Assembly: GCA_964637295.1 (NCBI GenBank)
Contig: CAZWWE010000005.1
Location: 1-63,363, forward strand
Source of the DNA: an uncultured Pseudomonadales bacterium
Lineage (GTDB): Bacteria; Patescibacteriota; Microgenomatia; UBA1400; PJMF01
DNA: 63,363 bases
Reading direction: 5' to 3'
In this document: one piece after another, positions 3,930 to 30,157 of the stretch
How positions within the stretch are numbered: the stretch's first letter is position 1
Layout: every line of letters starts with the position of its first letter
Translations under genes and position numbers: made by a program
Notes under the pieces: generated by a model
What the model was told of the DNA's origin: nothing
What the model saw: the letters and a program-made list of their open reading frames with translations, nothing else
Databases searched by the model: none

Positions 3930-4487
3930 GAATTCCATCAATAAATTAATCGGCAAACCATGACTAAAAGCAGTTAAATTGCCGTTAATGCTTTCGATTA
4001 AGGCCATGCCGCTATCATAAGCAGGAGAAAAAGCCGCTGACCAGGTTAAAACTGGCTCGCTTGTAACGTATCTTTCGATTTCATCTCTGCTCAGACGGCG
4101 CATTTTGACCATCACTTTTTCACAGCCACTCACTTGCGTGTTTGACTTGGTGTTGAGAAAAGCATAGCCAGTCAAAACCTCTATCTTTTTATCGGACTGA
4201 AAAGCCAACATTTCTCTAGCTTCATCCAAACTTTTTGGTTTCTCTAAGATTCTCCCTTGTAAGTAACAAAAAGTGTCAGCGGCGATAATGATTGCCTCTT
4301 TGTAATTTGCAGCGATTTTTTCTGCTTTAGCTAAGGCGATTTTTTCTGCTTTGTCGTATTGATCAATGAAAGGTACTGCCTGTTCGTCAAGATCAGCTGG
4401 GAAAACTTCAATGGGCAGAGATATTGCAGCTTTTAATAATTTAAGACGTTGTTTGGACTGAGAAGCTAAGATAATTTTTCTAGGCAT
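3909..4487 (-). CDS. maf: Maf-like nucleoside triphosphate pyrophosphatase
   Basis: 192 aa. N-terminal ILASQSKQR and overall Maf-family pattern. Overlaps the trxB end by 8 nt. Confidence 0.8.
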   Translation of the reverse strand: MPRKIILASQSKQRLKLLKAAISLPIEVFPADLDEQAVPFIDQYDKAEKIALAKAEKIAANYKEAIIIAADTFCYLQGRILEKPKSLDEAREMLAFQSDKKIEVLTGYAFLNTKSNTQVSGCEKVMVKMRRLSRDEIERYVTSEPVLTWSAAFSPAYDSGMALIESINGNLTAFSHGLPINLLMEFLSVNQK

Positions 4488-5493
4488 AGTTGAGCAAATA
4501 ATGTTCTACGTCCAGAGCGGCTTGCGTACCTGTACCAGCAGAAACAATGGCTTGACGATAGCGATGATCAGCCACATCGCCAGCGGCAAACACACCGTCA
4601 ACGGAAGTTAGGGTTGAGTAAACTTCATGAGCTCTTAATTTGATATAGCCGGCGTGATCCAAATCAAGCTGATCAATAAATAAATTGGTACTTGGTTTAT
4701 GACCAATCGCTAAAAAGACTCCCTCTGCTGCTAATTCTTGCAGCTTACCTTTGGTTTCAATTTTAATTTTTTGCACCGTTTTGCCATCGCCCATAATTTC
4801 TTTCAAGTTGGTATTCCACATCACTTTAATGTTGGGGTTATTTAGCACTCTTTCCTGCATGATTTTGCTGGCTCTAAAAGTTTCACCGCGATAAAGAATA
4901 GTAACTCTATCGGTAAATTTAGCTAAAGCCATAGCATCCTCCATGGCACTGTCGCCTCCACCTACCACATAAACATTTTTATCTTTGTAAAAAGCGGCGT
5001 CGCAAACTGCACAAGTACTGACTCCATGACCAAAATATTCTTGTTCACCAGGAATGCCTAGCATAATACTACTGGCTCCGGTGGCGACGATAATTACATC
5101 TGCTTGATAGTTAGCTTCGCTTTGACGAATTTGTGTCATCGCTTCTAATAACTCTTGGCGACTTAAAGACTGAAACTTTTTGTGATCCATGCCTTCTGGC
5201 AAACTTGTCCAGAGCGAAAAAGGTTTTTTGGAAAAATCAACCGCAGTGATGAACTCATATTTAAGATCAGTGCCAAAGCGGGCGGCTTGTTTTTGCAGAT
5301 CCATCATCAACATCGGACCGGACTTACCTTCTGGAAAACCAGGAAAATTTTCGATGTCGGTGGTGTACATCAACTGTCCACCAATTTCCATGCCAGCAAA
5401 AAGAGTAGTTTCTAAACGTGCTCTAGAAGTATAGATCGCCGCTGTTAATCCAGCAGGACCAGAACCGATAATGGCTAATTTTAGTTTCAGCAT
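4480..5493 (-). CDS. trxB: thioredoxin-disulfide reductase
   Basis: GSGPAG FAD motif, CAVCD redox-active disulfide, GGGDSA NADPH motif. Confidence 0.92.
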   Translation of the reverse strand: MLKLKLAIIGSGPAGLTAAIYTSRARLETTLFAGMEIGGQLMYTTDIENFPGFPEGKSGPMLMMDLQKQAARFGTDLKYEFITAVDFSKKPFSLWTSLPEGMDHKKFQSLSRQELLEAMTQIRQSEANYQADVIIVATGASSIMLGIPGEQEYFGHGVSTCAVCDAAFYKDKNVYVVGGGDSAMEDAMALAKFTDRVTILYRGETFRASKIMQERVLNNPNIKVMWNTNLKEIMGDGKTVQKIKIETKGKLQELAAEGVFLAIGHKPSTNLFIDQLDLDHAGYIKLRAHEVYSTLTSVDGVFAAGDVADHRYRQAIVSAGTGTQAALDVEHYLLNYA

Positions 5494-6178: not shown

Positions 6179-7996
6179 TTAATCTAGTTTTTTAATGGCT
6201 GCTTGTTTTTGAATGATAAGCGCTAATAATTCATCGAGTTTTTTTTCTTCTTCTTCCGTTCTTTTCAAACTACTGTCTAGCTGACTAATTTCCTCGTTAA
6301 TTAACATAATTTCTCGACGCAACGATTCTTTTTTCACGGTCGATAAAACTGCTTGCCATTCTTTTTCTAAATCATTTTCTTGCAGGTTTTTTTCATTTTC
6401 TGGATTAAGCAAAACATCCATGAGAATCTTTTTTAAGTCTTCTGCCAAGTTAGTTGAAAAACTTTGTAAATTGAAATTATTTTTAACTAGTAAAAGTTGC
6501 TTAAGAATTTCTTTGAAGCCACTGCTTTTGAATTCAAAATCACTAAGTGAGGCGGCCTTTTCTTTGATTAATTCGGCAGGAAAACTAAATAGTAAAAACA
6601 ACATGTATTCTTCATTGCGCTCTTGGTAACTCTTTAGCGTGCTAGCAACAACTGACTCGCCTGCTGTTTTTGCTTGACTGAGCAAACTTTTCTTTTGTCC
6701 AAATTTTTTAATATCTTCTTTTAACAGGGATTCTTTGACGTTGAGAACAATGGATAATTTCTGCAAATAGAATTCTTTTTCTACGCTGTGATCAATGGTT
6801 TCCAAAATTGGCGCCAAACGATTGATAATTTTTCTTTTACCATCGGCAGTTTTGGGATCATGTGATTCTATGGCGTGATTGAATAAAAATTCATAAACAG
6901 AAACCGCGCTCTCCACCGCCTGCCTCCAGACTTTAGGCTTTTCTCTGGCTAAATCATCAGGATCTTTAATTTTATCTTCTTCTTTTAAGAAATCTAAATG
7001 CTTTAAATCAATTACTCTTAGATCAATGCCTTTGGCTTTGACTATTTCAATGGCACGCTCTGTAGCTTTGATGCCAGCTTCATCGGCGTCAAGAGAAAGA
7101 ATAATTGTTTTGGCTACTCTAGAGAGCAGGTTGACCTGATCAGTGGTTAAAGCTGAACCTTTGATCGCTACGACATTATTAACATGGGCTTGAGTAGAGG
7201 AAATCATGTCAAATTCGCCCTCAACCACAACCACTTGTTCCTTCTTTTTAATTTCTCTAAAAAGTTCACTGTAACCATAGAGCATTTTGGATTTGTGATA
7301 AAGCAAAGTTTCAGGGGAGTTGATGTATTTAGCTTCTTTGGGAGATTGGCTAAGTAAGCGACCAGAAAAACCTACTACCTGACCACGATGATTTTTGAGT
7401 GGAAAAATTAAACGTTCGCGAAAACGATCATAATAGCCGCCGTTGCGTCCTTTGATAATTAGGCCCGTTTTTTCAATTAGATCTAGGGGAAATTTCTTTT
7501 TGTGATGCAAATATTTGAGCAAAGAATCCCAGGCGTTAGTGGCAAAACCTAGTTGAAAAATTTTAATCGATTCGTTAGTAATATCGCGATTTTGCAAATA
7601 ATCCCGCCCAATTTGACCAACCTCATGCTTGGTTAAAAGAAAATGATAATATTCCTTGGCAAAACTCATAATTTCTAAGAGTTTCTCTCGCTCTTCATCA
7701 TCCTGACTTTTTTGAAATTCTTTTAATTGGATTCCGGCTCGATCGGCCAAAGTTTTTAAAGCTTCATAAAAAGTAATGCCTTCAAAATTTTGCAAAAAAT
7801 CTAACACATCACCATTAGCTCCACAACCAAAACAGCGATAGCGTTGTAAACCGGGATTCACAAAAAAAGATGGGGTTTTTTCACTGTGAAAAGGACAACA
7901 AGCTCTGTAATTGGCCCCAGAATTTTCTAGCTTAATCTTCTCTGCGACAATCTCGACTATGTTAGTCGCATCTTTCACTTCTTTAATCTGTGACAT
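6179..7996 (-). CDS. dnaG: DNA primase
   Basis: CPFHSEKTPSF zinc-finger motif and a TOPRIM region (VVVEGEFDMIS); 605 aa. Confidence 0.92.
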   Translation of the reverse strand: MSQIKEVKDATNIVEIVAEKIKLENSGANYRACCPFHSEKTPSFFVNPGLQRYRCFGCGANGDVLDFLQNFEGITFYEALKTLADRAGIQLKEFQKSQDDEEREKLLEIMSFAKEYYHFLLTKHEVGQIGRDYLQNRDITNESIKIFQLGFATNAWDSLLKYLHHKKKFPLDLIEKTGLIIKGRNGGYYDRFRERLIFPLKNHRGQVVGFSGRLLSQSPKEAKYINSPETLLYHKSKMLYGYSELFREIKKKEQVVVVEGEFDMISSTQAHVNNVVAIKGSALTTDQVNLLSRVAKTIILSLDADEAGIKATERAIEIVKAKGIDLRVIDLKHLDFLKEEDKIKDPDDLAREKPKVWRQAVESAVSVYEFLFNHAIESHDPKTADGKRKIINRLAPILETIDHSVEKEFYLQKLSIVLNVKESLLKEDIKKFGQKKSLLSQAKTAGESVVASTLKSYQERNEEYMLFLLFSFPAELIKEKAASLSDFEFKSSGFKEILKQLLLVKNNFNLQSFSTNLAEDLKKILMDVLLNPENEKNLQENDLEKEWQAVLSTVKKESLRREIMLINEEISQLDSSLKRTEEEEKKLDELLALIIQKQAAIKKLD

Positions 7997-7998
7997 AT

Positions 7999-9120
7999 TT
8001 AAAGTATAAATTCCAAATAATTTTTAGAGTTTATTTCTTTGAAACTAGCATTTTGGTAAGTCTCAAGCCACAGCTTAGGAGCAGTGACATCTTTTTTCTG
8101 CCATTTAAATTCATAGCCAAATAGCTTGCCACTATTTTCTTCAATTAAATCAATTTCTTGCTGCTCATAAGTGCGCCAAAAATAATAATTAGTGCTAAAG
8201 TTTGCGTAAGAATTTTTCTTCATTCGCTCAATCATGAGGAAATTCTCCCATAGTTGACCTACGTCATTACGATCATCCAACTTATTGAAATTTGAAATTA
8301 AAGCATTGCGCACGCCTAAGTCAAAAAAGTAATATTTATTCATTTTGTTAACTTCATTGCGTAAATTGCGAGAAAAACCAGACAAAGGAAAGATAACAAA
8401 AGCTCGCTCAAGTAGATCCAAATACTTCATTACCGTCTTGTAATCAATTCCAACGTTACGAGCAATTTCAACCGTTGAAACTTCAGAACCAACTTGAAAA
8501 GCCAAGTGTTTAAGAATATTGAGAATTACCTTAGAATTTTTGATACCATCAAGCTCCAAAATGTCTTTGAGCAAATAAGAATTAGTGATTAATTTAATGA
8601 CTCGCTCTTTGTCTTCATACAAACGTTGATTAATCACCTCAGGAAAACTACCAAAACGCAAGTAAGATTCCAATTGATCTTTGAGCTCCGACCTAGACTG
8701 GCTAGCTAGCAATTCCTGCTGAGCAATGGGAAAAAGAGTCACCACATTTTTACGACCAGTCAAAGATTCAGCGGTTTTGGAAGCCAAGTCGAAAGAAGAA
8801 GAGCCAGTAGCAATAAAATAGCAATCTGGATATGCATCAACCATAAGCTTGAGAGCCAGGCCAATGTTCTGAATGCGCTGTGCCTCATCAATTACCAGCA
8901 ACTCATAATCACCCACAAAATTATGAGTAGAAGTCATGGTGCACTCTGACAAATCTGCTCCCACCTGCAAATCATCGCCAGTGACCATTTTGTAAGATAA
9001 CTTCGTGGAAGATAAAAATTCTTGAATTAAAGTGGTTTTACCTACTTGCCTAGCACCATAAATGATTAATACTTTGCCGGGCTGTAATTCTTCAGCAATT
9101 TCTTTAGTTCTTTTAATCAT
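7999..9120 (-). CDS. AAA+ ATPase with C-terminal DUF4143-like region
   Basis: Walker A GARQVGKTT, Walker B LLVIDEAQ. Architecture typical of AAA_14/DUF4143 proteins. Start at the internal MIKRTKE. Confidence 0.7.
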   Translation of the reverse strand: MIKRTKEIAEELQPGKVLIIYGARQVGKTTLIQEFLSSTKLSYKMVTGDDLQVGADLSECTMTSTHNFVGDYELLVIDEAQRIQNIGLALKLMVDAYPDCYFIATGSSSFDLASKTAESLTGRKNVVTLFPIAQQELLASQSRSELKDQLESYLRFGSFPEVINQRLYEDKERVIKLITNSYLLKDILELDGIKNSKVILNILKHLAFQVGSEVSTVEIARNVGIDYKTVMKYLDLLERAFVIFPLSGFSRNLRNEVNKMNKYYFFDLGVRNALISNFNKLDDRNDVGQLWENFLMIERMKKNSYANFSTNYYFWRTYEQQEIDLIEENSGKLFGYEFKWQKKDVTAPKLWLETYQNASFKEINSKNYLEFIL

Positions 9121-9156
9121 AAATAGATCATAGCACAAGTCAATTCCTGAGTCAAA

Positions 9157-9178
9157 TTGAAGGATCGCAATCCTTCAA
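9157..9178 (-). terminator. hairpin terminator candidate downstream of the 1084-aa gene
   Basis: Minus strand TTGAAGGAT-TGCG-ATCCTTCAA followed by TTTG. Confidence 0.45.
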
Positions 9179-9261
9179 TTTGGATAAATTAGAGGAATTA
9201 AATCCTTCACCTTAACATCGCTACTTGGTGAGCGATAAATTAGAAAATCTGAAAATAAATT

Positions 9262-12200
9262 TTAGACTAGTAAAAATGTTTGACGCTTTTTCCATAGCCA
9301 ATGGCCACATATAAGTAAAAAGATAAAGCCAAAATATTCTAAAGACTGTGGCCAAAAGAAAAGATAAATGGAATCGTTATTCCCTTGTTCTAAAATCCAA
9401 GCATTGGCCCAATTATTAATTTTCTGGTGTTTTAGTAATTTACCACTTTGTAAAGCCAACCAACCTTCATCATAGGCCTGAGACAATTTTAAATAATTGG
9501 CATCACAATTATTTGGCAAATTAACCTGATATAACCACAAAGCTTTTTTCTGAACTTCAAAATCGCAAGTAGCAAATTCAGCGTTTTGCATTAGCTGATT
9601 TTCTTTTTGCAAATTCAGGCTCATTAAAAATTGATATGGCCAATAAAAAACTTCGGCTGACCGCAGTACATTGCGGTTAACTTCTCGCCCATAAGAATCA
9701 GTGGAAAAATAAAGGGTATAGCCTTGGTTAAAATTTTCAGTCGGTGGCAAAATCTGGTAATTAATGCCGTCGCTTAAATAAGTTTCCAAGGGGCTAAGAC
9801 CCAAACTCTCCGCCTGGGTAGCAAAGACGAAAGGAATAGAGCTCAAGTTTTGGGCATCTAATCGCAGTAGGTAAGCTGAATTATGTTGGAGTTGTTCCAA
9901 ATAAAAATAATCACAAATACTGGTGCCAGTCGCTTGATAATAGTTTTCCTCTGTTCTTTTTTCTTTGAAATAGCTACCGCCAGCAAGCGGGCGACAGTTC
10001 TTTGCTTCCTCTAGATTTAAGTCTGTTTTCAAAACATTGCTTTGCAAAACGACTTTGGGAATTTTCACCGTTAAATCAGCAACTTCTTCCACCTTATAAG
10101 TTTTAGCTGATAAGTCAAAAAACGACAAATCTAAAAAGGCATAATCGAAATATTCTATTTTCGTCTGATTGCTTAAAGCGATGGTATTGCGCAGTTTAGT
10201 ATTGAGCAAAACATCCATTTCTCCATTTGTCGCGAATTCGCTCAACAACTGATTGTTAATGTTAAGGAAACAATCAACCTCTGTCTGGCAAAACTGACTA
10301 TTGAGAGAAAGTTCTTTAGTTAAATCAAAAGTAAATTTCTGGTCGTTTAAATAAATCTCTGGTAAAAGGGCTTTAAAGGTTAATTTAATTAAATTGCCCT
10401 CTACTGTCCAAGTTAGATGAAAAGGTAAATAGTTTTCAGTCTGTAACAAGTCTGGTAGCTGCAAGGAGAAATCAGTAGTTGCCGGTTTATTGCTAGTTAA
10501 ATAGAAAAAGTCATTATCTTCACTTAAATTAAATTCCAAATCTTTTTGTAAGTGATTGGTAAACAAAGAAGCAAAGGGATATATAATTTCCGCATTCTCT
10601 GCGTTATTTTTGTCAACACTTAAATAGTCGTGAAAATCATTAAAAGCCTGTTCGCTCCAGCTATGTTTATAAGAATTATTTATTATAGGTAAATTCTTAT
10701 ATAAACTGACAAAATCTTTTTCACGGCTATTTTCTGTATCGGCAAAGCTATAAAGGGTAATGAAATCAAACTCTTTGATTAAATTTATACGGCTAGAGCT
10801 TGTTAATAGCTCTTTAAGAGATTGGTAATCAAAAGGCTTGACAGTGTTACGATTAACAATCGAAGTATCCAATAATAAATAGTCAACATCATATTGACTG
10901 AAAATATTCTCCAACATTTTCACGTCTTTTTTGTCCAGAGCCGCTTGTAGCTGCCAATAATAACGCTCATCGGCTTCACTCCAAACATCGAAGGCACGAT
11001 CTAAAATCGGTTGTTTAATGCCATACCACAAGAAACCAGAGCCACGATAGCCCCAGTCATTCCACTGCCAACCATAAAAGCTATGTTGAGGTAGATTGGC
11101 GATGCGACTACTTTCTGGAACTTCATTTTTGAAATATGCAAAAGCTTTGAAATAAACTTCTGGAATCTGTACTCGCAATTTTTCATAAAAGAAATGCCCT
11201 TGAAATGAGGGCCAAGAATAAAAAATGAGAGAAACAAAAAAGATTAGAGCAAAGATTATTTTGAAGATTTTTTTCTTGAGCAAAGAGAAAACAAAAGTTA
11301 AACTAAAAGTGACAAACAAACTATAAAACAAGCTATAAGGCACAATCCATTTGGTGAAAGATGAGCGAAAAATTTGACCAAAAAGCGGTATCTTTTCACG
11401 CAAGAAATCGTAAATAAATCCAAGTGGTGGATTAGAACCAAGAAGAATAAAACAGCAAAATAAGAACAAAGTTAAAAGCAGCCAACGAGATTGTTTTAAT
11501 TTTAAAGATAACTTTTTTGAAATAAAAAGAGAAGTGACGCCCACTAGTAATAAAGCGAAGAAAGTAAAAGAAATGAGAACAGCTAAGGGATTTTGGAAGT
11601 GAATTTTCCATTCATCTAGTAAAAAAACCATATTACCAGACTGGTCAAAATCCACAGAATCAAACCAATAACCCTTTAACTGAGCTAGATCATAGAAATT
11701 GCCAAATTTATTATTACGTAAAAATACAGACTCAGTGGTCATCAAATTTCCTTTGGCATTAACGGTTGCGTCACTATTAGTCAAAGTAAAAAAAGACACT
11801 GGTAAAAGCCAAAAAGCATTGACCAAAAATACTATTAATAAAATTTTTAAAGAATTTAAAATCTTTTCTTTTCTAGAGAAAACTTTTCTTCCAAAAAAAT
11901 AAAATAGCAAAATTATCGCTAATAAAATTAAATAAACTAAAAAGATAGTTTGTATATAACCCATAACTGTTCCAAACAATGAAATTAAAAAAAATAAAAA
12001 TAAATTTTTTCTAGAATTTTTATTTAAGTATTTAAGTAAAAAATAAAATAACCATGGGAAAAAAGCAAAAAAGGCTGTGAAAGGTTCAAAAGTCACATAA
12101 AAGTTTTGCATTGTGCCAATATTCAATAAATAAAAACTTGCTCCTAAAAAGGAAATTAGTCTGTTCTTTGTAAAATAAACAAACAAATAATAAGAACCCA

Positions 12201-12516
12201 AAACTCCAATAAATAATGAAGTAAAATTCCAAAAGTAACGCAAAAAAGATTGCTCAAAAATAAAAGAAAACGGAATAAGAAATATTTGACGAATTAAATC
12301 CGCACCATGACCCATACCGCCGAGCAAACCTAAACCCTGATACTCTTGCCAGGAAACATTTAAGGATCTTTCTAAATTTATGAATAGATCAAAATCAACT
12401 TGCAAATTATCCCAACCAGTTAAATAAGTATTTTTACTAAAATTAACTATAGAAAGCACCAAGACTAATAAAAAAAGTAATAATGGAAAAAGTAATTTTT
12501 CAATTGTTTTTTTCAT
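9262..12516 (-). CDS. large integral-membrane glycosyltransferase-like protein (GT-C / AftD-like candidate)
   Basis: 1084 aa. The N-terminal ~450 aa has many TM helices and is followed by a ~600-aa soluble domain and a C-terminal TM. 4-nt overlap with the upstream GT1 gene. Confidence 0.55.
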   Translation of the reverse strand: MKKTIEKLLFPLLLFLLVLVLSIVNFSKNTYLTGWDNLQVDFDLFINLERSLNVSWQEYQGLGLLGGMGHGADLIRQIFLIPFSFIFEQSFLRYFWNFTSLFIGVLGSYYLFVYFTKNRLISFLGASFYLLNIGTMQNFYVTFEPFTAFFAFFPWLFYFLLKYLNKNSRKNLFLFFLISLFGTVMGYIQTIFLVYLILLAIILLFYFFGRKVFSRKEKILNSLKILLIVFLVNAFWLLPVSFFTLTNSDATVNAKGNLMTTESVFLRNNKFGNFYDLAQLKGYWFDSVDFDQSGNMVFLLDEWKIHFQNPLAVLISFTFFALLLVGVTSLFISKKLSLKLKQSRWLLLTLFLFCCFILLGSNPPLGFIYDFLREKIPLFGQIFRSSFTKWIVPYSLFYSLFVTFSLTFVFSLLKKKIFKIIFALIFFVSLIFYSWPSFQGHFFYEKLRVQIPEVYFKAFAYFKNEVPESSRIANLPQHSFYGWQWNDWGYRGSGFLWYGIKQPILDRAFDVWSEADERYYWQLQAALDKKDVKMLENIFSQYDVDYLLLDTSIVNRNTVKPFDYQSLKELLTSSSRINLIKEFDFITLYSFADTENSREKDFVSLYKNLPIINNSYKHSWSEQAFNDFHDYLSVDKNNAENAEIIYPFASLFTNHLQKDLEFNLSEDNDFFYLTSNKPATTDFSLQLPDLLQTENYLPFHLTWTVEGNLIKLTFKALLPEIYLNDQKFTFDLTKELSLNSQFCQTEVDCFLNINNQLLSEFATNGEMDVLLNTKLRNTIALSNQTKIEYFDYAFLDLSFFDLSAKTYKVEEVADLTVKIPKVVLQSNVLKTDLNLEEAKNCRPLAGGSYFKEKRTEENYYQATGTSICDYFYLEQLQHNSAYLLRLDAQNLSSIPFVFATQAESLGLSPLETYLSDGINYQILPPTENFNQGYTLYFSTDSYGREVNRNVLRSAEVFYWPYQFLMSLNLQKENQLMQNAEFATCDFEVQKKALWLYQVNLPNNCDANYLKLSQAYDEGWLALQSGKLLKHQKINNWANAWILEQGNNDSIYLFFWPQSLEYFGFIFLLICGHWLWKKRQTFLLV

Positions 12517-13709
12517 GAATAAATCTTATTAATTAAAGATAAATACTGACTAGAAATCTCTTCTATTTTACGCCTAGCTTTAATTTCTTTAGCGAACAAT
12601 TTAAGACTGGTTAAGCGATCTTCATCTAGTTGTCTAATAATTCTAGAAAGATCTTCTTTGTTTAATTCAAAAATTAAATTCCCATCTTTTAGACCTGATT
12701 TTTGTAGTGCTAAATTAATGTCCTCACTATCCAAATAATATTTTAGTTTTTCAGATAAAATTGCTGGTTTTTCATAACTCCAAGCCATAGCTAATGGTCC
12801 AGAAGAAGAGAACATTGTCATATAAGGTAATATGATCAAGTCACAAGCAATAAAATAGCTAATCATTTGCTCTTCAGTTACAAAGCCAGTTACATTAATA
12901 TTTTTTTTATTGGCAAGGGAATAAATTTCGTTTACATAATCATTAATAAGCTTATTGCTCTTGTGATTAGGATTGATTCCTCCAACAACAATCAGCTCAT
13001 AGCCCAAGTCTTTAGTCCAATTTTCCAATAACCATTTAATGCCCTTATAAGGAGCAATATAACCAAATACCATGGCGTACTTTTTAATTTGATCTAAGTT
13101 TAAATTTTCTCTGGCTACTAATTTGGAGATAGGACTACCAGTAGAAGAAATTAAATGAGGAATAAAAATTGCTTTTTTACCTAGACTATTTAACAAATAC
13201 TTTTCAAAAACTACAATTTTTTTGACAACTATGTTGAGATAAAAATACCATAATTTCAAAGCTATGTTTTTAATAAAAATATAAAATTTATTTGTTTCAA
13301 CATCGCTCATGTCTTGAGGAGCCTGATGCAAAATAAAAACTACAGATTTTCCACATATGAAAAGAAAAAACAATCCTAACATTGCCAAAAGAGTGCAAAA
13401 GAGATTGCCAAACATATTAATTTCAAAAGAAAAAATTATTTGTTTTTCTCTTCTTTGCAAAAGAAAAACAAATAATCTAAAAATACTTAAAAAATTATTT
13501 CTCTTCCAAAATCTTTTAATAAATAAACCATCTTCAAAATATTTTTCTGGCACAGAAAATCTTTCAGACAAAACAATAATTTTTCCATTAAATTTAACTG
13601 CTAAACTTTGAAGAAGCAATTTGGTATAAGAAGCCACGCCCACTGTTTCAGCGGCGTGAGTCGCACCTTTTCTCGGATAGCTAGAAACAACGATTAAGCT
13701 TTGAGCCAT
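12513..13709 (-). CDS. glycosyltransferase, GT-B fold (group 1)
   Basis: 398 aa. The C-terminal half resembles the Glycos_transf_1 pattern. Overlaps the GT2 gene and the 1084-aa gene. Confidence 0.7.
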   Translation of the reverse strand: MAQSLIVVSSYPRKGATHAAETVGVASYTKLLLQSLAVKFNGKIIVLSERFSVPEKYFEDGLFIKRFWKRNNFLSIFRLFVFLLQRREKQIIFSFEINMFGNLFCTLLAMLGLFFLFICGKSVVFILHQAPQDMSDVETNKFYIFIKNIALKLWYFYLNIVVKKIVVFEKYLLNSLGKKAIFIPHLISSTGSPISKLVARENLNLDQIKKYAMVFGYIAPYKGIKWLLENWTKDLGYELIVVGGINPNHKSNKLINDYVNEIYSLANKKNINVTGFVTEEQMISYFIACDLIILPYMTMFSSSGPLAMAWSYEKPAILSEKLKYYLDSEDINLALQKSGLKDGNLIFELNKEDLSRIIRQLDEDRLTSLKLFAKEIKARRKIEEISSQYLSLINKIYS

Positions 13710-14485
13710 GAAAATAACCCTGTTTTTAGGGTATCACGGTCAGAGACGAGAGTATAGCTGCCTCGCCAGTCATAGAGGCGAATCGCCAATAGATCAAGCA
13801 GAGACTTGACCACATCTCTTAGCAGATTGACTTTGCTACGCTCATCATTGGACCAGGACACCGGAACTTCTGTCATGGTGAATTGATATTTTTTCGCCAA
13901 ATACAAAATTTCAGCATCATATCCCCAGCGGTTTATCTTCATCATCGGCGCAATGGTCTGATAGGCTTTGCGTTCAAAGAGTTTAAAACCACAAGTAAAA
14001 TCGCTAATTTTGATTCCCAAAAGCAATTGAGTTAAATAAGTAAAACCTTTGCCCATAATTTGGCGGTATAGTGGCTGTGCCAGCAAAACGGTCGACTTGC
14101 CATTCTTTCTGGTACCGACCATCACTTGACTAGCAACTACCCTGCGAGCAAAAAATTTCTGCAATTCACTGAAAGGAGTCGACATATCCACATCAGTTAG
14201 TAGCAACAAATCACCAGTGGCAGCTTGCAAGCCAACTTTGACCGCATGGCCTTTGCCGCGATTGACCTGATAACTGAGTAGTTTGACTGGCACGCGCAAT
14301 TTGCTGCGCAAAAATGGAAGTTGTTTTTTGATTAGGCGAGCTGTCTGATCGGTGCTGCCATCATCGACAAAAAGCACTTCTTGGAGCTTGAAACGCTTGG
14401 GCCACGCTTGCGCCAGAGCCTGGAAAATAATTTCCAACCGCTCTGCTTCATTGAAGACTGGTATTAGCACACTTATTTTTTGCAT
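13694..14485 (-). CDS. GT2 polyprenyl-phosphate glycosyltransferase (dolichyl-phosphate glucosyltransferase-like)
   Basis: VLIPVFNE ... VDDGSTD ... TDVD motifs of GT2 enzymes. Start set at ATG 14485 (MQKISVLIP). Confidence 0.8.
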   Translation of the reverse strand: MQKISVLIPVFNEAERLEIIFQALAQAWPKRFKLQEVLFVDDGSTDQTARLIKKQLPFLRSKLRVPVKLLSYQVNRGKGHAVKVGLQAATGDLLLLTDVDMSTPFSELQKFFARRVVASQVMVGTRKNGKSTVLLAQPLYRQIMGKGFTYLTQLLLGIKISDFTCGFKLFERKAYQTIAPMMKINRWGYDAEILYLAKKYQFTMTEVPVSWSNDERSKVNLLRDVVKSLLDLLAIRLYDWRGSYTLVSDRDTLKTGLFSWLKA

Positions 14486-14738
14486 AACGCTTACTGAAGA
14501 TACCAATTATTAATTAATATGCTCAGTAAGCGAGGCGTGAACCTATGCCAATCACCGTTTCACGGGCGACAGACAAAAGAGGGATAGAACCTCTACGCTT
14601 AGTTGTATGTGGCTTCGACCAACCTTCCAGTGAAGGAAGATGACCCAGGAGGTGTGCTCCTAGCTTGCTCGATCGGCCCGAAGGCGCGGCTCGAGGCAAA
14701 GTGGGTCTAATTGGTTTCAGCGTTTTTGACGCTAGGTA
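14486..14738 (-). ncRNA. candidate structured RNA / regulatory spacer upstream of the GT2-GT1 operon
   Basis: 253-nt GC-enriched noncoding gap on the operon strand. Minus-strand hairpins: CTCGA..GCC-UUCG-GGC..TCGAG (14668-14695), a 7-bp stem at 14645-14663, and the 10-bp stem CGCTTACTGA/TCAGTAAGCG (14488-14532) ending 2 nt before the ATG. Confidence 0.3.
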
Positions 14739-15401
14739 TTACGGGCAGGTAAAATTGCCCGCAAACACCTCGAACGCGGGGATTTCCCGCGCTCCGTTCG
14801 CCTGCTCTTTTTTAAGCAATCGGCAAACGTCCCTGACAGCGTCGGTCAAGGGATAAGCGCTGACGAGTCGCCAAGTGCCCGCCACGATGGAGTAGTCAAC
14901 TCCATCGCCCTTTGCCACAATGACCTTGTCGCCGAGGTCAAAAGTGCAGACCATATTATCCGGGCAAATCGCCTGGACACTGGCCTTCGGCACAGCCCTC
15001 CAAGTCCAGCCGCACGGTTCAGTGCTGATGCGCTGAACATCCACCCCAGTCGCCGTTTTAGCGTCGGCCGTGGTGAAATCACAAACGGACATGAGTTCGT
15101 CCGTTTGGGAGGCGGGGGTGTTAGCCTGCGCGGTTTCAGTCCCCGACATGGTCGGGGTGAAGGTTGGCACCGGGGTTTCGGTCGGCGGGACCTGCATCTC
15201 CTCCCCGTCAGGGGTGGGGGACGCAGTGGGGGACGCGGTGGGAGCCTGGGCGGTTTGCACCGCCTTTTCGACAGCCTGAGCAATGAGGGCGACTTGCTCC
15301 TCTTCGCTCAAAGTCGTGGGCGCGGGGGTGCTCATGGCGTCACAGGCGCCGAGCACCAAGCTCGCCATCATGGCGAGCGCAATCAGGGTAAAACGTTTCA
15401 T
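14739..15401 (-). CDS. lipoprotein, unknown function, high-GC (foreign-looking) gene
   Basis: Strong SD GGAAGGAGAAACC-ATG, signal peptide MKRFTLIALAMMASLVLGAC with a lipobox, P/T/A-rich linker and a Cys-rich C-terminal domain. About 60% GC against an AT-rich background. Confidence 0.75.
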   Translation of the reverse strand: MKRFTLIALAMMASLVLGACDAMSTPAPTTLSEEEQVALIAQAVEKAVQTAQAPTASPTASPTPDGEEMQVPPTETPVPTFTPTMSGTETAQANTPASQTDELMSVCDFTTADAKTATGVDVQRISTEPCGWTWRAVPKASVQAICPDNMVCTFDLGDKVIVAKGDGVDYSIVAGTWRLVSAYPLTDAVRDVCRLLKKEQANGAREIPAFEVFAGNFTCP

Positions 15402-15958
15402 GGTTTCTCCTTCCTGGGCTGAACTACCCAGGACATTGCCAACCAATGATCTCTCATTAGCAATGTCCTAGGCAATTCGCCACAAGTTGAAGAAAGATGA
15501 AATTTCACCCAACAAATACAACTATTTTGTGGAATATTTGATAAATCAAATATTGATCTCTTAGCTTGCGCTAAGTGATCTTCACGCCTTGTTAAAATGC
15601 ATCTCTTCCTGAGATTATTGTCGTCTGTTAGGCGGCTTGCGCCTAGAGATAACATCTCGATCGGAGATACCCTTCTGCTCTTTCAAGCAGAGAGGAGGTT
15701 TCTGACTCAGAGCCTACATTGCAAACTTCCTTCGTGAAAGTCTGCAGGTAAGCCCTGCTCTGGTCTGTTGCGGGATGGCGCAAACAAGCCCGAAGATCAG
15801 AAACCTTTTCTCTGCCAAAAAATTTTATTTTGGACCCTGTCTTTTTGCTTTGCAAAAAGCAGCTGGTACAAAAGATGCTGTGCATAAGACGATCTTTCAA
15901 TCATCAATTAATAGGGAATTTTGTTTTATTTTAGTCATTAGCCATTCCCTAATAACTA
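15402..15958 (-). ncRNA. candidate long structured 5' leader / large ncRNA
   Basis: About 550 nt between the predicted promoter and the lipoprotein ATG. At least 8 local hairpins. On the minus strand two have GCAA (GNRA) tetraloops (15560-15575; 15634-15643). Long-range pairing GGTTTCTGA/TCAGAAACC. Confidence 0.35.
15832..15886. repeat. 55-nt two-hairpin repeat, copy 1 (partner at 30265..30319)
   Basis: GGACCCTGTCTTTTTGC..GCAAAAAGCAGCTGGTACRAAAGATGCTGTGCATA. The two copies differ only in predicted loop positions. Confidence 0.7.
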
Positions 15959-15964
15959 GGACAA

Positions 15965-15993
15965 AGTATATCACTATAAGTCATTTTTGTCAA
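15965..15993 (-). promoter_or_regulatory. sigma70-like promoter directing leftward transcription
   Basis: Minus strand TTGACA-17 nt-TATACT. It is preceded by TATCCTATAAT, the same upstream module seen at 17115-17154. Confidence 0.5.
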
Positions 15994-16067
15994 GATTATA
16001 GGATAGTTTTTGGAACTGTTTGGAAGAATCACACTTCTTGTAACCTGAGATTGAGATAATCAATTCA

Positions 16068-16138
16068 GGGCCCGGTGTTGGTGCGCAGTTGGACTTACGA
16101 ACTCTGACTTAGGGGTTTGATTCCCCTCGGGTCCACCA
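16068..16138 (+). tRNA. tRNA-like element / degenerate tRNA (pseudo), CCA encoded
   Basis: 7-bp acceptor stem GGGCCCG/CGGGTCC with a G3:U70 pair, T arm AGGGG-TTTGATT-CCCCT, discriminator A and encoded CCA. The core is about 5 nt short, there is no canonical D arm, and the T loop has T instead of C56. Confidence 0.4.
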
Positions 16139-16150
16139 TAAAATTTGCTG

Positions 16151-16179
16151 TTGAAAATAAACACGCATTTTGTTAAAAT
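16151..16179 (+). promoter_or_regulatory. sigma70-like promoter (extended -10) for a short transcript
   Basis: TTGAAA-17 nt-TAAAAT with TGT immediately upstream of the -10. Confidence 0.45.
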
Positions 16180-16185
16180 TTAGGT

Positions 16186-16252
16186 AGTTCGTAAGTTCAC
16201 AGACACTGCACAAGTCAGGTCAGAAAATCACTCCTAACCGAGTGATTTTTTG
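16186..16252 (+). ncRNA. candidate ~67-nt small RNA
   Basis: Bounded by the promoter at 16151-16179 and an intrinsic terminator. The 5' 13 nt (AGTTCGTAAGTTC) are complementary to 16091-16103 of the adjacent tRNA-like element. Confidence 0.35.
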
Positions 16253-16256
16253 TTTT
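16224..16256 (+). terminator. rho-independent terminator
   Basis: AAAATCACTC-CTAACC-GAGTGATTTT followed by a T run. Confidence 0.7.
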
Positions 16257-16363
16257 AAATTTACATCTTTAAAGTCTCCGTCCTCCGTCTCCACTTCGAA
16301 CATTCCCTCTCGTCTTCCGCCTATGCTCCAAACATTCCTTCGTATAACTCAGTCGCAAAGCCA

Positions 16364-16390
16364 ATCAAAAAGCCCCGCCATAAGCGGGGC
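16364..16390 (-). terminator. rho-independent terminator of the surface-protein gene
   Basis: Minus strand GCCCCGC-TTATG-GCGGGGC followed by TTTTTG. Confidence 0.7.
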
Positions 16391-16410
16391 TTCAAGTTCC
16401 AATAAAAATC

Positions 16411-17106
16411 TTATTTAACAATCGCTCTAGCTTTTCTCCAAGCCAAAGAGCCAAGACCAGCGAAGGCCAAAGCTTCAATCACTAAAATGGTGCTTAAATC
16501 AAAACCAGTAGCAGGAGTGCTTTTGGTAATGATTTTGCCACTATCGGTGGCTACACAAAAACTAGCATAATCACTATCGCTGACATCGTCAGAATGAGAA
16601 TAAGCATGAGCAGCATTGGTAATACAAGTAGTACCTGCTGGTAATTCACCTGCATTTTTGAAACGAGCAACGAAATAAACAGTTACTGATTCATCTGGAT
16701 CAAGACCACCTAAACCAAATTTGATTTTGTTATCAGTGGCTTCAGCACGATAATCGCCTTTTTCACTACTGACATAGACCATATAATCGTCTAAGCGATC
16801 GAAGTCGTCATTGATGCGTACACTGTCAACTTTAATATCAGAAATATTTTTGACACGTAATTTAAATTTAACTTCTTCACCTGGAGCAAAAGTGTAATCT
16901 TTAGCATCAATATTGTCCCAATAAGCATCGGCTTTAGGATTAAAAACTTTTTTATCTAAACTGAGGTCCCCAGTTTCACAAACTTCGCCACCACCATAAA
17001 CGGTGTGGCATTCTTTGGCGCTGGCTAAATTGCTAAAAAGTAACAAAAAACCAGTGATAATTAGAAAATAAGAAATGATTTTTTTCATATTAACTTTACT
17101 TGTCAT
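16411..17106 (-). CDS. secreted surface protein with C-terminal sortase-type sorting signal
   Basis: Signal peptide. The C-terminus has TPATG, then a hydrophobic helix, then the basic tail RKARAIVK. Alternative start at 17088 (MKKII). Confidence 0.75.
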   Translation of the reverse strand: MTSKVNMKKIISYFLIITGFLLLFSNLASAKECHTVYGGGEVCETGDLSLDKKVFNPKADAYWDNIDAKDYTFAPGEEVKFKLRVKNISDIKVDSVRINDDFDRLDDYMVYVSSEKGDYRAEATDNKIKFGLGGLDPDESVTVYFVARFKNAGELPAGTTCITNAAHAYSHSDDVSDSDYASFCVATDSGKIITKSTPATGFDLSTILVIEALAFAGLGSLAWRKARAIVK

Positions 17107-17114
17107 GATCGGCT

Positions 17115-17143
17115 ATTATATACTTATAATAGTATATTGTCAA
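17115..17143 (-). promoter_or_regulatory. consensus sigma70 promoter
   Basis: Minus strand TTGACA-17 nt-TATAAT, 8 nt upstream of the ATG at 17106. Confidence 0.6.
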
Positions 17144-17145
17144 TA

Positions 17146-17967
17146 TTATAGGATAACTGGCACTGCACTGACGAACAATCTTTGCCAAGAAGTGCCCGGT
17201 GGCCAGCAGGTTTGCAAAAGTAAAATATTTTCATTTTGACGGTCATTTACAAAAGCAGCGTCATTGCCCTTGACAATATTTTGTTCACTGACTTGATAAG
17301 TAAATTGCTGATCGCCTAAGTGCAAAATAATTTGGTCGCCACTTTTCAATTCTTTAATTTGATAAAAAACCGCGTTGTAAGCCTCCACATTCCAAACTCC
17401 ATTGGTCGAATGTCCAAAAATATAAATCAACTTGTTTTCTCCAGGAAAAGCCGAGTTGAGAGCGTGAGCCACACCTTCTTCCAAAGCCACTTGATATTCT
17501 TTGACATTATTGGGATCGACATTGGCTTGGACTTTTTCATAAAGATTTAATTTGGGAATCTCAATGTAAAATGATAGTTTTGCTTTATCCTTATTAGTAG
17601 CCAGTTCAGTGACTGCGCTTTGACCAGCTTCTTTTGGAGTTAAATTCGATTCTTTGGCAAAAATAGGCCAAGAACCATCGAGCTGAGCTTTCGTCCAATC
17701 AAAAAAGGCAAAGCTATTCTTTTCTGCTTCTCTAGGCAAAACCTTAATAAATTCGGGAATACTAAGCACAATTTGTTTCAGCTCAGTAACTTGATTTGGC
17801 CAAGTTTTGAGCTGTTCATAATTGGCAAAAGGATTGCTTAAAAAAACAAAAATTAAACTCAAGACAAAAGAAAAAATCGCCAAGCTTCTAAGGCTACGTG
17901 CTTTCTTTAAAAGAAATTTTACGGGTGCTTTTTTATAAAACCTCACCCTTGTTTTTTTCTTAAACAT
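17146..17967 (-). CDS. sortase family transpeptidase
   Basis: N-terminal TM anchor and the catalytic LLLQTCWP (TLxTC-type) motif near the C-terminus. Adjacent to its candidate substrate. Confidence 0.8.
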   Translation of the reverse strand: MFKKKTRVRFYKKAPVKFLLKKARSLRSLAIFSFVLSLIFVFLSNPFANYEQLKTWPNQVTELKQIVLSIPEFIKVLPREAEKNSFAFFDWTKAQLDGSWPIFAKESNLTPKEAGQSAVTELATNKDKAKLSFYIEIPKLNLYEKVQANVDPNNVKEYQVALEEGVAHALNSAFPGENKLIYIFGHSTNGVWNVEAYNAVFYQIKELKSGDQIILHLGDQQFTYQVSEQNIVKGNDAAFVNDRQNENILLLQTCWPPGTSWQRLFVSAVPVIL

Positions 17968-17999
17968 ATTATGGTTATTTGCGTCACTACAGCAATATA

Positions 18000-18482
18000 C
18001 TATAGGACATTATAGCGTGAGGAACGTAAAAAAGCAATTTGGCGGAGTTTTTTAAGCAATAAAAAGCCATAGCCAAAAAATAAATCACCAACTAAAGTAC
18101 GAGTATAAAAAGGTAAGGCTAGTGCATAACAAGTTAAGAATCCCTGCCAACTATGTTCATACCAGGCTAAAAAGACGCCAAAATTGGAAAGTAGAAAAAA
18201 ACTAAAAGAAGCTAAGGGTAAAAACAACCACTGCCTCTTAAAAAATTTGCGGGCTAAAAAGGCAAAAAATGGATAAGCGGCAAAACCAAGATAAGTCCAC
18301 CAAAATCCTTGATAAAAGCCACCTTTGAAGAAATCGAAAGCCACGATGGAAGCAAAATAAAATAAAAGATTACCGCCAAAAAAGCCGTAGGCTCCAAGTG
18401 GAGAAATATTGGCTGGCAAAAAACTGAATCTAGAAATATAGGTTAAGATTGCCCCGCTTAGACTAATAAGTGATTGCTTCAT
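18000..18482 (-). CDS. integral membrane protein (ECF S-component-like), unknown substrate
   Basis: About 160 aa with 5 hydrophobic helices. Coupled to the DUF4430-like gene upstream. Start trimmed to MKQSLISL. Confidence 0.55.
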   Translation of the reverse strand: MKQSLISLSGAILTYISRFSFLPANISPLGAYGFFGGNLLFYFASIVAFDFFKGGFYQGFWWTYLGFAAYPFFAFLARKFFKRQWLFLPLASFSFFLLSNFGVFLAWYEHSWQGFLTCYALALPFYTRTLVGDLFFGYGFLLLKKLRQIAFLRSSRYNVL

Positions 18483-18909
18483 ATTTGAGTTCGAGTCTTT
18501 CATTTTTTTGTAATTCGATTTGGGCAATGCCAGTTTGAGCATATTCACCATTTTGATAAACTGCCCAATAATTTTTGTTGTCTGCCATTAGACCATTCAC
18601 TCCTTCAATCATCGCCCCAAAATCATATTTTTTAAGACTTAATTTTACTTGACTCTCAACCAGCTCTAAAGCGTTTTGGCCTGAGGCGGTGGCAATAAAT
18701 TGATAACTTTCTTTCTGCTCTTCGTCGCCAACTTGAAACTCTAATTGAGCTGCTGGAGAAATACCAGGCTGGCTTGCTGCCTTTTTTGAGAGCGAATCGT
18801 CTGTAAAATTGTTAAATAAATGACGAATGTTTTCTTGACTTAATACTAGAAAACCAACTATCAGAATAAAAAAAACTACGATCAATTTATTAACATTTTT
18901 TGTCATCAC
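18463..18909 (-). CDS. DUF4430-like secreted/anchored protein
   Basis: N-terminal anchor plus C-terminal GVNGLMADNKNYWAVYQNGEYAQTGI, typical of DUF4430 (transcobalamin-like) domains. Confidence 0.6.
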   Translation of the reverse strand: MMTKNVNKLIVVFFILIVGFLVLSQENIRHLFNNFTDDSLSKKAASQPGISPAAQLEFQVGDEEQKESYQFIATASGQNALELVESQVKLSLKKYDFGAMIEGVNGLMADNKNYWAVYQNGEYAQTGIAQIELQKNERLELKYEAITY

Positions 18910-29792: not shown

Positions 29793-29829
29793 ATTGAAAA
29801 AAGATTGAATATTCAATCTTTTTTCAATG
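29793..29829. terminator. near-perfect 37-nt palindrome directly downstream of tRNA-Ser
   Basis: CATTGAAAAAAGATTGAA/TTCAATCTTTTTCAATG arms with one bulge. Confidence 0.55.
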
Positions 29830-29911
29830 CGGAAGGGGCGGGACTCGAACCCGCGGTGCCCGGAGGCGTCAGTTTTCGAGGCTGATGCAATAGCCGCTAT
29901 GCGACCCTTCC
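29830..29911 (-). tRNA. tRNA-Ser (anticodon CGA)
   Basis: Manual fold: acceptor GGAAGGG/CCCTTCC, anticodon loop CTCGAAA, long variable arm, T arm GCGGG-TTCGAGT-CCCGC, discriminator G. Confidence 0.85.
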
Positions 29912-29929
29912 TTAATATTTAAGCTTAAA

Positions 29930-30127: not shown

Positions 30128-30157
30128 ATTTAAATTAATCTTTTTAAATTATCAATG

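Follow-up and report, generated by a model that had tools for sequence, protein, structure and literature searches.

Why does one surface-lipoprotein gene of a Patescibacteria/Microgenomates genome carry so much more G+C than the DNA around it? The gene, here called lipoA, lies on the minus strand of contig CAZWWE010000005.1, a stretch of 63,363 nucleotides (nt) that is referred to below as the window, and it heads an operon of putative glycosyltransferases (GTs), GT2–GT1–GT-C. Stretches of deviant composition are routinely put down to horizontal transfer or mis-assembly, above all where the genome of a candidate phylum has been assembled from metagenomes, and an earlier note on this DNA offered both readings, describing a sharp high-GC insert that looked wedged into an existing transcription unit and could be a recent transfer from a high-GC donor or a chimeric metagenomic join. 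On balance, we favour another answer: that the G+C richness is a selected, native property of the coding sequence (CDS) of a major variable surface lipoprotein, exerted through a heavily base-paired mRNA.

In the mechanism that we propose, the promoter, a 557-nt leader, a strong Shine–Dalgarno sequence, the surface lipoprotein gene and a structured trailer form a single native expression module at the head of the putative glycosylation operon. Selection would push synonymous sites toward G or C and arrange them for extensive pairing within the mRNA, uncoupling the composition of the gene from that of the genome, and the dense pairing would shield the message of what would be a very abundant surface lipoprotein from nucleases and make it long-lived. 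Cells of the Patescibacteria/Microgenomates group contain few ribosomes; sparsely translated messages would consequently be exposed to nucleases, which would make structural protection valuable. Whole cassettes, each comprising a lipoprotein and its cognate glycosyltransferases, are swapped at this slot, through recombination in the interval bounded by the conserved leader and the GT-C gene.

Base composition of lipoA and its homologues

The window as a whole has a G+C content (GC) of 36.9%. Overlapping 300-nt windows outside 13.3–16.1 kb average 0.364 (standard deviation (s.d.) 0.045, maximum 0.483, n = 1206), and a GC of at least 0.50 is reached in 15 windows of this size, all within 14501–15500, with a peak of 0.657. 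The sliding-window profile therefore bears out the G+C-rich stretch that the earlier note had placed at about 14.5–15.9 kb, and its coordinates, 14486–15958, correspond to the predicted transcription start, the leader, the CDS and the spacer up to the GT2 start codon. The CDS, which the note put at about 60% GC, has 60.9%, with values of 0.58, 0.53 and 0.72 at the first, second and third codon positions (GC1, GC2 and GC3); compared with the 58 other open reading frames (ORFs) of at least 120 amino acids (aa) in the window, z is 8.2 for GC3 and 6.2 for GC. The G/C run quoted in the note, ggcgggggtgttagcctgcgcgg, is present, as are long spurious ORFs, which overlap the gene in other frames and strands and measure 62–145 aa. 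High GC is thus confirmed, but a single sharp block is not: the profile is stepped, from 0.272 in GT1 through a step near 13612 to 0.447 in GT2, 0.494 in the spacer, 0.609 in the lipoprotein gene, 0.413 in the leader and 0.368 in the DUF11 gene upstream. Nor are all flanking genes A+T-rich, as the note had it, because GT2 has 44% GC (43.7%) and, at 0.45, the second highest GC3 in the window. GT1 (27% GC) and the GT-C gene (32% GC), at 9262–13611, lie below the mean of the window, and within 3 kb the operon passes from a region that is among the poorest in G+C of the whole window to the one that is by far the richest. Within these 63 kb we found no second GC-rich block and no second copy of lipoA.

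At four-fold degenerate sites of the lipoprotein CDS, A+T is down from 0.65 to 0.23, and its GC3 of 0.72 compares with a mean of 0.31. A and T are both depleted, and C and G both enriched, whether sites are four-fold or two-fold degenerate; the effective number of codons (Nc), 50.6, is close to the 52.1 expected from GC3. The near-expected Nc and the shifts of all four bases together mark a general G/C enrichment rather than the use of a special codon set; codon optimisation as the sole cause was accordingly disfavoured. GC skew of the plus strand is +0.10 to +0.17 over 14950–15399, which leaves the coding (minus) strand mildly C-rich.

The assembly is sound at this point. Two Logan contigs, each assembled independently from a sequencing run of its own, show 100% identity to the window across both junctions, L009 over 14123–17960 and L010 over 14157–15865, and the gene order recurs in about 22 other loci, refuting the chimeric join raised in the earlier note. 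The compositional contrast is the sole point in favour of an assembly artefact, to which we give practically no credence.

A search of 5.8 billion proteins returned 10 relatives of lipoA at 45–75% identity, and a profile search of 1.84 billion cluster representatives showed a family of 279 clusters at 50% identity. Every retrieved locus (about 22) has the same gene order: a sortase and/or a DUF11/CLIPPER surface protein, the lipoprotein, GT2, GT1 and a protein of about 1000–1180 aa (GT-C). One lipoA-family locus comes from Candidatus Gottesmanbacteria, and the labels on relatives of the large protein read Patescibacteria, Pacebacteria, Levybacteria or Microgenomates. Four GTDB loci bear the title 'uncultured Gammaproteobacteria', apparently by default; in gene order and GC they agree with the Patescibacteria loci. 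No homologue stands in a high-GC context among the recovered loci, whose hosts range from 23% to 46% GC; the 279 clusters carry no taxon names. Synteny of the operon in relatives, which the note had proposed as a check, holds for the order of lipoprotein and glycosyltransferase genes in all retrieved family loci and fails for the lipoprotein itself in the nearest relatives, which carry an unrelated one in the same slot. The idea of a gene wedged into an existing transcription unit is not supported: in all relatives the regular first gene behind the conserved promoter and leader is a lipoprotein gene.

The enrichment recurs with the gene order. Across about 22 lineages the lipoprotein gene has 48–65% GC against 23–46% in its flanks (52% against 23% in L030, 54% against 27% in L025, and 65%, with a GC3 of 0.91, against 45% in L042), and GC of the domain regressed on that of the host has a slope of 0.09. 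In a meta-profile of 20 lineages the GC excess is small ahead of the start codon (+0.03 to +0.08) and still only +0.07 over the initial 50 nt of the CDS; it then climbs to +0.19 to +0.25, holds at +0.15 to +0.19 as far as the stop codon and is zero more than 100 nt downstream of it. Such respect for the reading frame would not be expected of a foreign DNA block or of a gene-conversion tract. Identity between pairs of sequences at the three codon positions (0.65, 0.66 and 0.34 in 16 lineages) identifies lipoA as a genuine CDS. Four-fold sites are saturated between lineages, with an identity of 0.30 against 0.27 expected, which excludes both a recent spread between the sampled lineages and an overlapping element conserved by position. 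The enrichment is thus one of base composition rather than of particular conserved sites, and it is ancient.

The most extreme case is a distant member of 504 aa in L042 (6001–7515; Logan SRR13612670), with its GC3 of 0.91 in a 45% GC locus, in which the enriched block again equals the CDS. Further GC-rich genes for secreted proteins or lipoproteins stand beside the family gene in distant lineages (L018 6453–7172; L023 2845–3405; L042 9093–9614), and the enrichment may thus extend to other exported proteins of the locus.

A variable slot behind a conserved leader

The nearest relatives of the window are collinear with it at about 80% nt identity over more than 20 kb, and their GT-C proteins are 63–80% identical. 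Yet lipoA, its GT2 (GT2-A) and GT1 are missing from L034–L039, where the slot holds other GC-rich lipoproteins, lipoB, lipoC and lipoD (Table 1). These share a signal peptide ending in ...LASLLAAC and a stalk rich in Pro, Thr, Ala and Val (P/T/A/V), followed by unrelated head domains, and at 48–55% GC they have a GC3 of 0.47–0.58 against 0.18–0.30 in their neighbours. A single family uniting lipoA and lipoB was considered and rejected, profile comparison aligning the signal peptide only. The promoter and the long leader are common to all cassette types. Given that 12430–15797 is non-homologous between the window and L034, and that the GT1 of the window is only 24–28% identical to those of L038 and L039, sequence comparison indicates that the whole A-type cassette is foreign to the nearest relatives of the window and that this is a hot spot at which cassettes replace one another.

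Comparison with L017 (LaPlata_bin-3499, 45% GC) exposes exchange on a finer scale. Most genes of the two are 53–59% identical at the protein level and DUF11 71%, against 93% for GT2, and nt identity rises to 83–97% and 86–96% in two patches (Table 1). The left edge of the former falls at the step in GC, 0.27 to 0.45; between the two patches, the lipoprotein's linker and head domain are only 38–61% identical. Four-fold identity to L017 is 81% in GT2 compared with 32–42% in the sortase, DUF11 and GT1 genes. The composition of GT2 (43.7% GC, GC3 0.45) is typical of L017's own genes and not of those of the window, which gives the direction of transfer as from an L017-like lineage to that of the window. 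We therefore read GT2, part of the leader and the signal peptide as a recent import from a 45% GC relative, an import to which the lipoprotein gene, by the same comparison, does not belong. In its head domain it comes nearest to L001 and L005 (75% protein identity), and lipoA itself is a mosaic. The lateral exchange suspected in the earlier note is thus evident at this locus, both in the cassette and in GT2, a gene that the note took to be resident; for the lipoprotein, a recent transfer from a high-GC donor is not supported.

The breakpoints lie in homologous flanks: they map to leader, spacer and GT genes. Of the hallmarks of mobile DNA, the ORFs in 6179–18551 showed no integrase or transposase domain, direct repeats in the flanks not having been searched for, and a tRNA-like element is present at 16068–16138.

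Predicted folding of the message and competing explanations

Folding was scored as a z value of the minimum free energy (MFE) relative to shuffles that keep the protein and its codon usage (synonymous-codon shuffles) or the dinucleotides. The lipoA CDS reaches −7.0 against synonymous and −8.9 against dinucleotide shuffles, and both of its halves contribute. The 20 other genes scored in the window average −0.36 (s.d. 0.98, minimum −1.45), and the imported GT2, although also elevated in GC, has an ordinary −0.87. Slot genes of 18 of the 21 lineages fall between −2.8 and −8.6, irrespective of type (lipoB −6.0 and −6.3, lipoC −8.1, lipoD −8.6). Synonymous shuffling costs 30–70 kcal/mol of folding energy. 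The sense strand folds better than the antisense in eight of nine genes, by up to 67 kcal/mol, which points to the RNA rather than the DNA, although the antisense also beats its own shuffles (z −2.3 to −7.3). Per nucleotide, less GC-rich alleles reach −0.47 and −0.50 kcal/mol, compared with −0.41 kcal/mol in the allele of 91% GC3. A promoter matching 11 of 12 consensus positions with an extended TG, together with a 10-nt Shine–Dalgarno sequence, constitutes signals of strong expression, and high expression and a stable message would both be expected under the mechanism proposed above.

Several observations count against selection for mRNA pairing. The z values are MFE predictions, not measurements, and three of the 21 lineages have no folding excess (L019 −1.2, L033 −1.3 and L042 about 0). 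In L042 a GC3 of 0.91 leaves the shuffles nothing to change (MFE −0.41 kcal/mol/nt), and the extreme composition of this gene is not explained by folding arrangement; its codon usage resembles that of a high-GC organism, with almost one codon per amino acid (GGC 43/51, AGC 21/29, CAG 29/29, ATC 26/27), avoidance of GGG and an Nc of 30.5 against 38 expected. RNAalifold found no conserved structure in the C-domain CDS of 11 lineages (−5.6 kcal/mol), which means that selection would have to act on general 'structuredness', pairing density recurring rather than one fold. In the synonymous-shuffle test, the Escherichia coli CDSs lpp (z −1.1) and ompA (−0.5 to −0.9) score weakly, so the analogy with stable abundant messages is not quantitative. 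Finally, the window holds no ribosomal-protein, EF-Tu or GroEL gene, and tblastn for EF-Tu and GroEL in the retrieved sequence gave no match, leaving no highly expressed reference set. A specific RNA embedded in the CDS, or an overlapping gene, was dropped as a candidate on the lack of a conserved structure and the saturation of third positions.

A broader version of the same idea, which we regard as possible but hold only tentatively, is that the whole transcript of about 1.5 kb, from leader to trailer, is under selection as a densely base-paired RNA, with a GC like that of rRNA or tRNA, 50–65% across hosts of 23–46% GC, whichever lipoprotein occupies the slot. The constraint would then act on the mRNA with enough force to overcome the mutational bias of the genome, and it would be accompanied by a conserved leader RNA not described before and by a neighbouring tRNA-like gene of alanine type. 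Pairing throughout the transcript might then be an adaptation of ultra-small cells with few ribosomes, or serve a second, non-coding role of the RNA.

Among processes that could raise GC without selection on RNA, GC-biased gene conversion would make the slot a recombination hot spot in which heteroduplex repair drives synonymous sites to G/C. Recombination is indeed visible in the L017 patches and in cassette replacement, G and C rise together and Nc stays near its GC3 expectation; we nonetheless think it unlikely, as the enrichment keeps to the limits of the CDS and does not extend to its first 50 nt, the recombined GT2 keeps the donor's ordinary GC3 of 0.45, the GT2-B gene of L034 has a GC3 of 0.18 directly beside lipoB, and neither the non-random arrangement (z to −9) nor the better folding of the sense strand is explained by it. 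We give a little less weight still to classical translational selection, by which very high expression would favour G/C-ending codons, which CNN and GNN tRNAs read by Watson–Crick pairing, and structure would be a by-product. The confinement of the enrichment to a CDS with a low-GC start would fit, as would the strength of the promoter and Shine–Dalgarno sequence, the near-single codon per amino acid in L042 and the presence in the window of genes for tRNA-Ser(CGA) and tRNA-Arg(GCG); against it, Nc in the window gene and in most of its homologues does not depart from the value that GC3 by itself would give, synonymous shuffles retain codon usage and still lose the folding energy, and in moderately expressed genes (thioredoxin, GDH) GC3 is up only slightly.

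The recent acquisition that the earlier note entertained, from a high-GC donor that might be the host of an episymbiont, with amelioration still to come, could draw on the GC3 of 72% here and 91% in L042, on the sharp edges, on the lack of the cassette in the five nearest relatives and on a continuum of GC3 excess from 0.04 to 0.5 that could look like stages of amelioration. It is contradicted by a lipoprotein gene that is GC-rich in every host from 23% to 46% GC and always found in Patescibacteria-type gene order, by a signal peptide and leader common to relatives, by synonymous sites that are saturated between lineages with GC3 still high, by a first 50 nt of the CDS at host-like GC, and by less GC-rich alleles that fold better per nt than the 91%-GC3 allele, the opposite of decay; we consider it improbable. 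Somewhat less credible again is a role at the level of DNA, in which dense G/C-rich inverted repeats would exert their effect while the DNA is single-stranded, for instance by serving as recombinogenic quasi-palindromes that favour the exchange of cassettes. The slot is hypervariable and the antisense z values are themselves low, but the greater stability of the sense strand implies G–U pairs that exist in the transcript only, and the breakpoints fall in the leader, spacer and GT genes rather than in hairpins of the CDS. Amino-acid composition alone, in a protein rich in Ala, Pro, Thr and Gly, scarcely comes into question: GC1 and GC2 do exceed those of the neighbours (0.35–0.52 and 0.28–0.39), yet the largest excess is at GC3 (0.72 against 0.31), and the fall of A+T at four-fold sites is beyond its reach.

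Leader RNA, putative glycosylation operon and known systems

The features that the earlier note gave to lipoA, its own strong Shine–Dalgarno sequence, a lipobox, a P/T/A linker and a six-Cys C-terminal domain, are all present. The N terminus of the protein, MKRFTLIALAMMASLVLGA|C, matches the lipoprotein pattern of a basic n-region, a hydrophobic h-region and a lipobox (LVLGA|C), and lipoA is the sole ORF of the window to do so; Cys follows the signal peptide in about half of 11 aligned family members, the others being anchored by a transmembrane segment. Six Cys lie in the C-terminal ~115 aa, a region that AlphaFold2 models with a predicted local distance difference test score (pLDDT) above 90 for residues 110–220, a C-terminal domain of about 120 aa. 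Sequence searches of Pfam, NCBIfam and the PDB gave no match to lipoA, and neither did Foldseek searches of the predicted fold against the PDB and BFVD (best E-values 0.45 and 0.51), in agreement with the note, which could place the domain in no family.

Table 1 Features of the lipoA locus and its variable cassettes (window coordinates)
Feature	Coordinates	Strand	Description
lipoA lipoprotein gene	14739..15401	−	220 aa; 60.9% GC; GC3 72%; hyper-structured mRNA (predicted fold)
lipoA signal peptide and lipobox	15342–15401	−	aa 1–20
lipoA P/T/A-rich linker		−	aa 21 to ~105
lipoA six-Cys head domain	14742–15086	−	aa ~106–220
Shine–Dalgarno sequence of lipoA	15406..15415	−	AGGAAGGAGA; 10 nt; ends 4 nt ahead of the ATG at 15401; read from the sequence
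Sigma-70 promoter	15965..15993	−	TTGACA-17-TATACT; extended −10 TG; 11/12 consensus positions
Structured 5′ leader	15402..15958	−	557 nt; MFE −212 kcal/mol; z = −10.7 (100 dinucleotide shuffles)
Structured spacer lipoA–GT2	14486..14738	−	folding z = −4.8
Terminator-like hairpin and U-run	14578–14594	−	within the spacer
Hairpin of ~20 bp	14488–14532	−	abuts the GT2 start codon
GT2 glycosyltransferase	13694..14485	−	putative polyprenyl-phosphate-sugar-synthase type; PF00535 (1.9e-21, 77 bits, above cut-off)
GT1	12513–13709	−	29% GC
GT-C-like polytopic protein	9262–12516	−	1084 aa; 32% GC; ~10 N-terminal transmembrane segments and a large C-terminal domain
Variable cassette relative to nearest relatives	12430..15797		part of the leader, lipoA, GT2 and GT1 (398 aa); non-homologous to L034
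Recombination patch 1	13612..14611		83–97% nt identity to L017; left edge at the GC step 0.27 to 0.45
Recombination patch 2	15352..15595		3′ leader and signal peptide; 86–96% nt identity to L017
Cassette of L034–L036			lipoB (185–192 aa) and a 288-aa GT2 (GT2-B)
Cassette of L038			lipoC (316 aa) and a 451-aa GT1
Cassette of L039			lipoD (178 aa) and a 453-aa GT1

The consensus-like promoter noted earlier is confirmed, with a predicted transcription start at about 15958. It is identical in L034 and L039 and invariant in a six-lineage alignment, and window 15798–16060 is 91% identical to L034 compared with 80–84% in flanking genes. The leader that follows is predicted to be highly structured in relatives also (z −7.9 in L034 and −9.2 in L039), its structure being conserved in lineages with lipoproteins of types A, B, C and D and its length at about 450–560 nt, with GNRA-capped hairpins. 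In the window, a 19-bp long-range helix pairs 15797–15815 with 15687–15705 and encloses a window-specific insert of about 98 nt (about 15706–15796); a second domain, 15585–15712, keeps 15–17 pairs despite changes on both sides, and a 13-bp hairpin lies at 15427–15472. In the minimum-energy fold the Shine–Dalgarno sequence is paired by this hairpin together with an upstream U/C-rich UCUUUCUUC stretch. A covariance model of a 128-position leader core (R2) matches the window, L017 and L034–L039, and weakly L024 and L025. Rfam 15 has no family at gathering score for the leader, CDS or spacer, 14300–16500 giving only sub-threshold matches at chance level, and we suggest that the leader is a candidate new cis-regulatory RNA. 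A perfect palindrome at 15533–15554, AATATTTGAT-TT-ATCAAATATT, is kept in L017 and looks like an operator or a tight hairpin.

In the spacer, the hairpin is kept in L017 through a compensatory change of AGAGG/CCUCU to GGGG/CCCC, and the length, 230–243 nt in L001 and L005, is conserved. The Rfam threshold is reached in the window solely by two tRNAs elsewhere, the canonical genes at 29829–30232 on the minus strand, tRNA-Ser(CGA) and tRNA-Arg(GCG), both of which read G- or C-ending codons by Watson–Crick pairing.

Divergent from the lipoprotein promoter is a tRNA-like gene (16068–16138, plus strand) with counterparts in L017 (~5306–5377, minus) and L039 (~4377–4447, minus). It forms a cloverleaf with stems of 7, 4, 7 and 5 bp, a T-loop, a 3′ ACCA and a G3:U70 pair, the identity element of alanine tRNAs, and its acceptor, D and T stems show compensatory changes in three lineages. 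The 'anticodon' loop, of 8–10 nt, is not conserved; ARAGORN makes no call, and tmRNA and mascRNA matches are weak. Two possible roles for the gene are that of an alanine acceptor that serves envelope chemistry instead of decoding, and that of a landmark for recombination. It is missing from L034 and L035: window 16061–16400 is without a counterpart in L034, which has a YhcG/DUF1016 nuclease-like gene (6847–7782, minus strand) in place of the element.

Upstream of the promoter, the DUF11/CLIPPER protein (16411–17967, minus strand) ends in ...TPATG, a hydrophobic segment and KARAIVK, likely a sortase sorting signal to judge from its sequence, and a sortase gene lies directly upstream. Downstream, the best NCBIfam matches of GT2 are PgfS, ArnC and PpgS, all of which score below their cut-offs (42–76 bits against 370–529). 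The GT-C-like protein of the window has no match in Pfam, NCBIfam or, by sequence, the PDB; a few homologues at 32–40% identity carry PF11847 (AftD-type) or PF10131. No ORF for a GtrA-type flippase was found between 9262 and 16000. The type of lipoprotein co-varies with the set of glycosyltransferases, and this co-variation and the adjacency of the genes suggest that the glycan produced by the enzymes encoded downstream is probably attached to the P/T/A stalk. Between the GT-C gene and dnaG, the window has a gene for an AAA_14/DUF4143 ATPase (7998–9322; ORF 7999–9138, minus strand), which is missing from the nearest relative, L034; L035, L037 and L039 have a 161-aa ORF at this position instead, and in L006 a 50%-identical homologue follows the GT-C gene.

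Each part of this arrangement recalls a known system. The classic stable and abundant messages of E. coli are lpp and ompA. Structure within coding sequence has been reported to raise functional mRNA half-life (PMC6883848), and S-layer mRNAs (Lactobacillus slpA) to be stabilised by a structured 5′ untranslated region (PMC10221546). Like slpA, lpp and ompA, lipoA combines a strong promoter and a long structured leader that ends at the ribosome-binding site with a secreted or lipidated envelope protein, and the proposed logic, from structure to a message that would be long-lived to a yield that would be high, is shared. Unlike them, structure and G+C enrichment run through the whole CDS, 15–30 GC points above the genome in one lineage after another, and slot genes reach z values of −3 to −9 in the test in which lpp has −1.1 and ompA −0.5 to −0.9. 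The vls gene of Borrelia, another variable surface lipoprotein gene, has about 49% GC in a genome of about 28.6%, and the authors of the study conclude that selection must maintain this composition; the locus has a strong G-skew of 0.52, its coding strand carries runs of G, and silent cassettes for gene conversion are arrayed beside the gene (PMC11499132). The likeness lies in a variable, GC-rich surface lipoprotein gene in a low-GC genome. By contrast with vls, the coding strand of lipoA is mildly C-rich, the gene is single-copy with no silent cassettes within 63 kb, and variation is between lineages, by replacement of whole cassettes.

O-antigen and capsule loci switch by recombination in conserved flanks. 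The lipoprotein locus resembles them in its variable middle with matched glycosyltransferase sets, its mosaic identity and its heterogeneous composition, with the sortase, DUF11, promoter and leader as one conserved flank and GT-C with DnaG as the second, but it differs in that the variable unit includes the presumed acceptor lipoprotein and that the atypical part is GC-rich, not AT-rich. In three-component extracytoplasmic glycosylation, a polyprenyl-phosphate-sugar GT2 works with a GT-C enzyme, as do GtrB/CsbB with YfhO, Ppm1 with Pmt in the O-mannosylation of lipoproteins, and the Pgf system. The GT2, with PgfS, ArnC and PpgS as its best family matches, and the AftD-type GT-C domains in some homologues of the large protein would fit this scheme, and the adjacent lipoprotein with its Pro/Thr/Ala stalk recalls the O-mannosylated lipoproteins of mycobacteria; family scores below the curated cut-offs and an operon without a flippase gene do not. 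A foreign genomic island would share the atypical composition and the absence of the cassette from the nearest relatives, but here composition follows the CDS, is common to the family and to unrelated slot genes, and is old. Integron cassettes differ in that no integrase domain occurs in the neighbouring ORFs and the breakpoints are in homologous flanks, attC not having been modelled. Stable envelope messages, vls and glycan-locus switching each share one aspect with this locus, and none the combination. Our reading of the literature found no description of a CDS that lies 15–30 GC points above the genome across a phylum-level group, with folding z values to −9 and a slot that takes unrelated lipoproteins.

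A sharp-edged GC excess of 25 points can thus be a native, selected property of one gene, while the DNA that was truly transferred adjoins it and looks unremarkable, which counsels caution wherever horizontal transfer is called from GC. Should the mRNA-structure reading be true, the locus would be an unusually clean natural case of synonymous-site selection for RNA folding, with a pattern that recurs in no fewer than four unrelated coding sequences and in some 20 lineages, and of relevance to candidate-phyla genomics, synonymous-site selection and mRNA structure alike. For the organisms themselves, the analysis points to a probable major variable surface (glyco)lipoprotein of Microgenomates, accompanied by a conserved leader RNA, and a candidate for host or phage interaction in bacteria not yet cultured.

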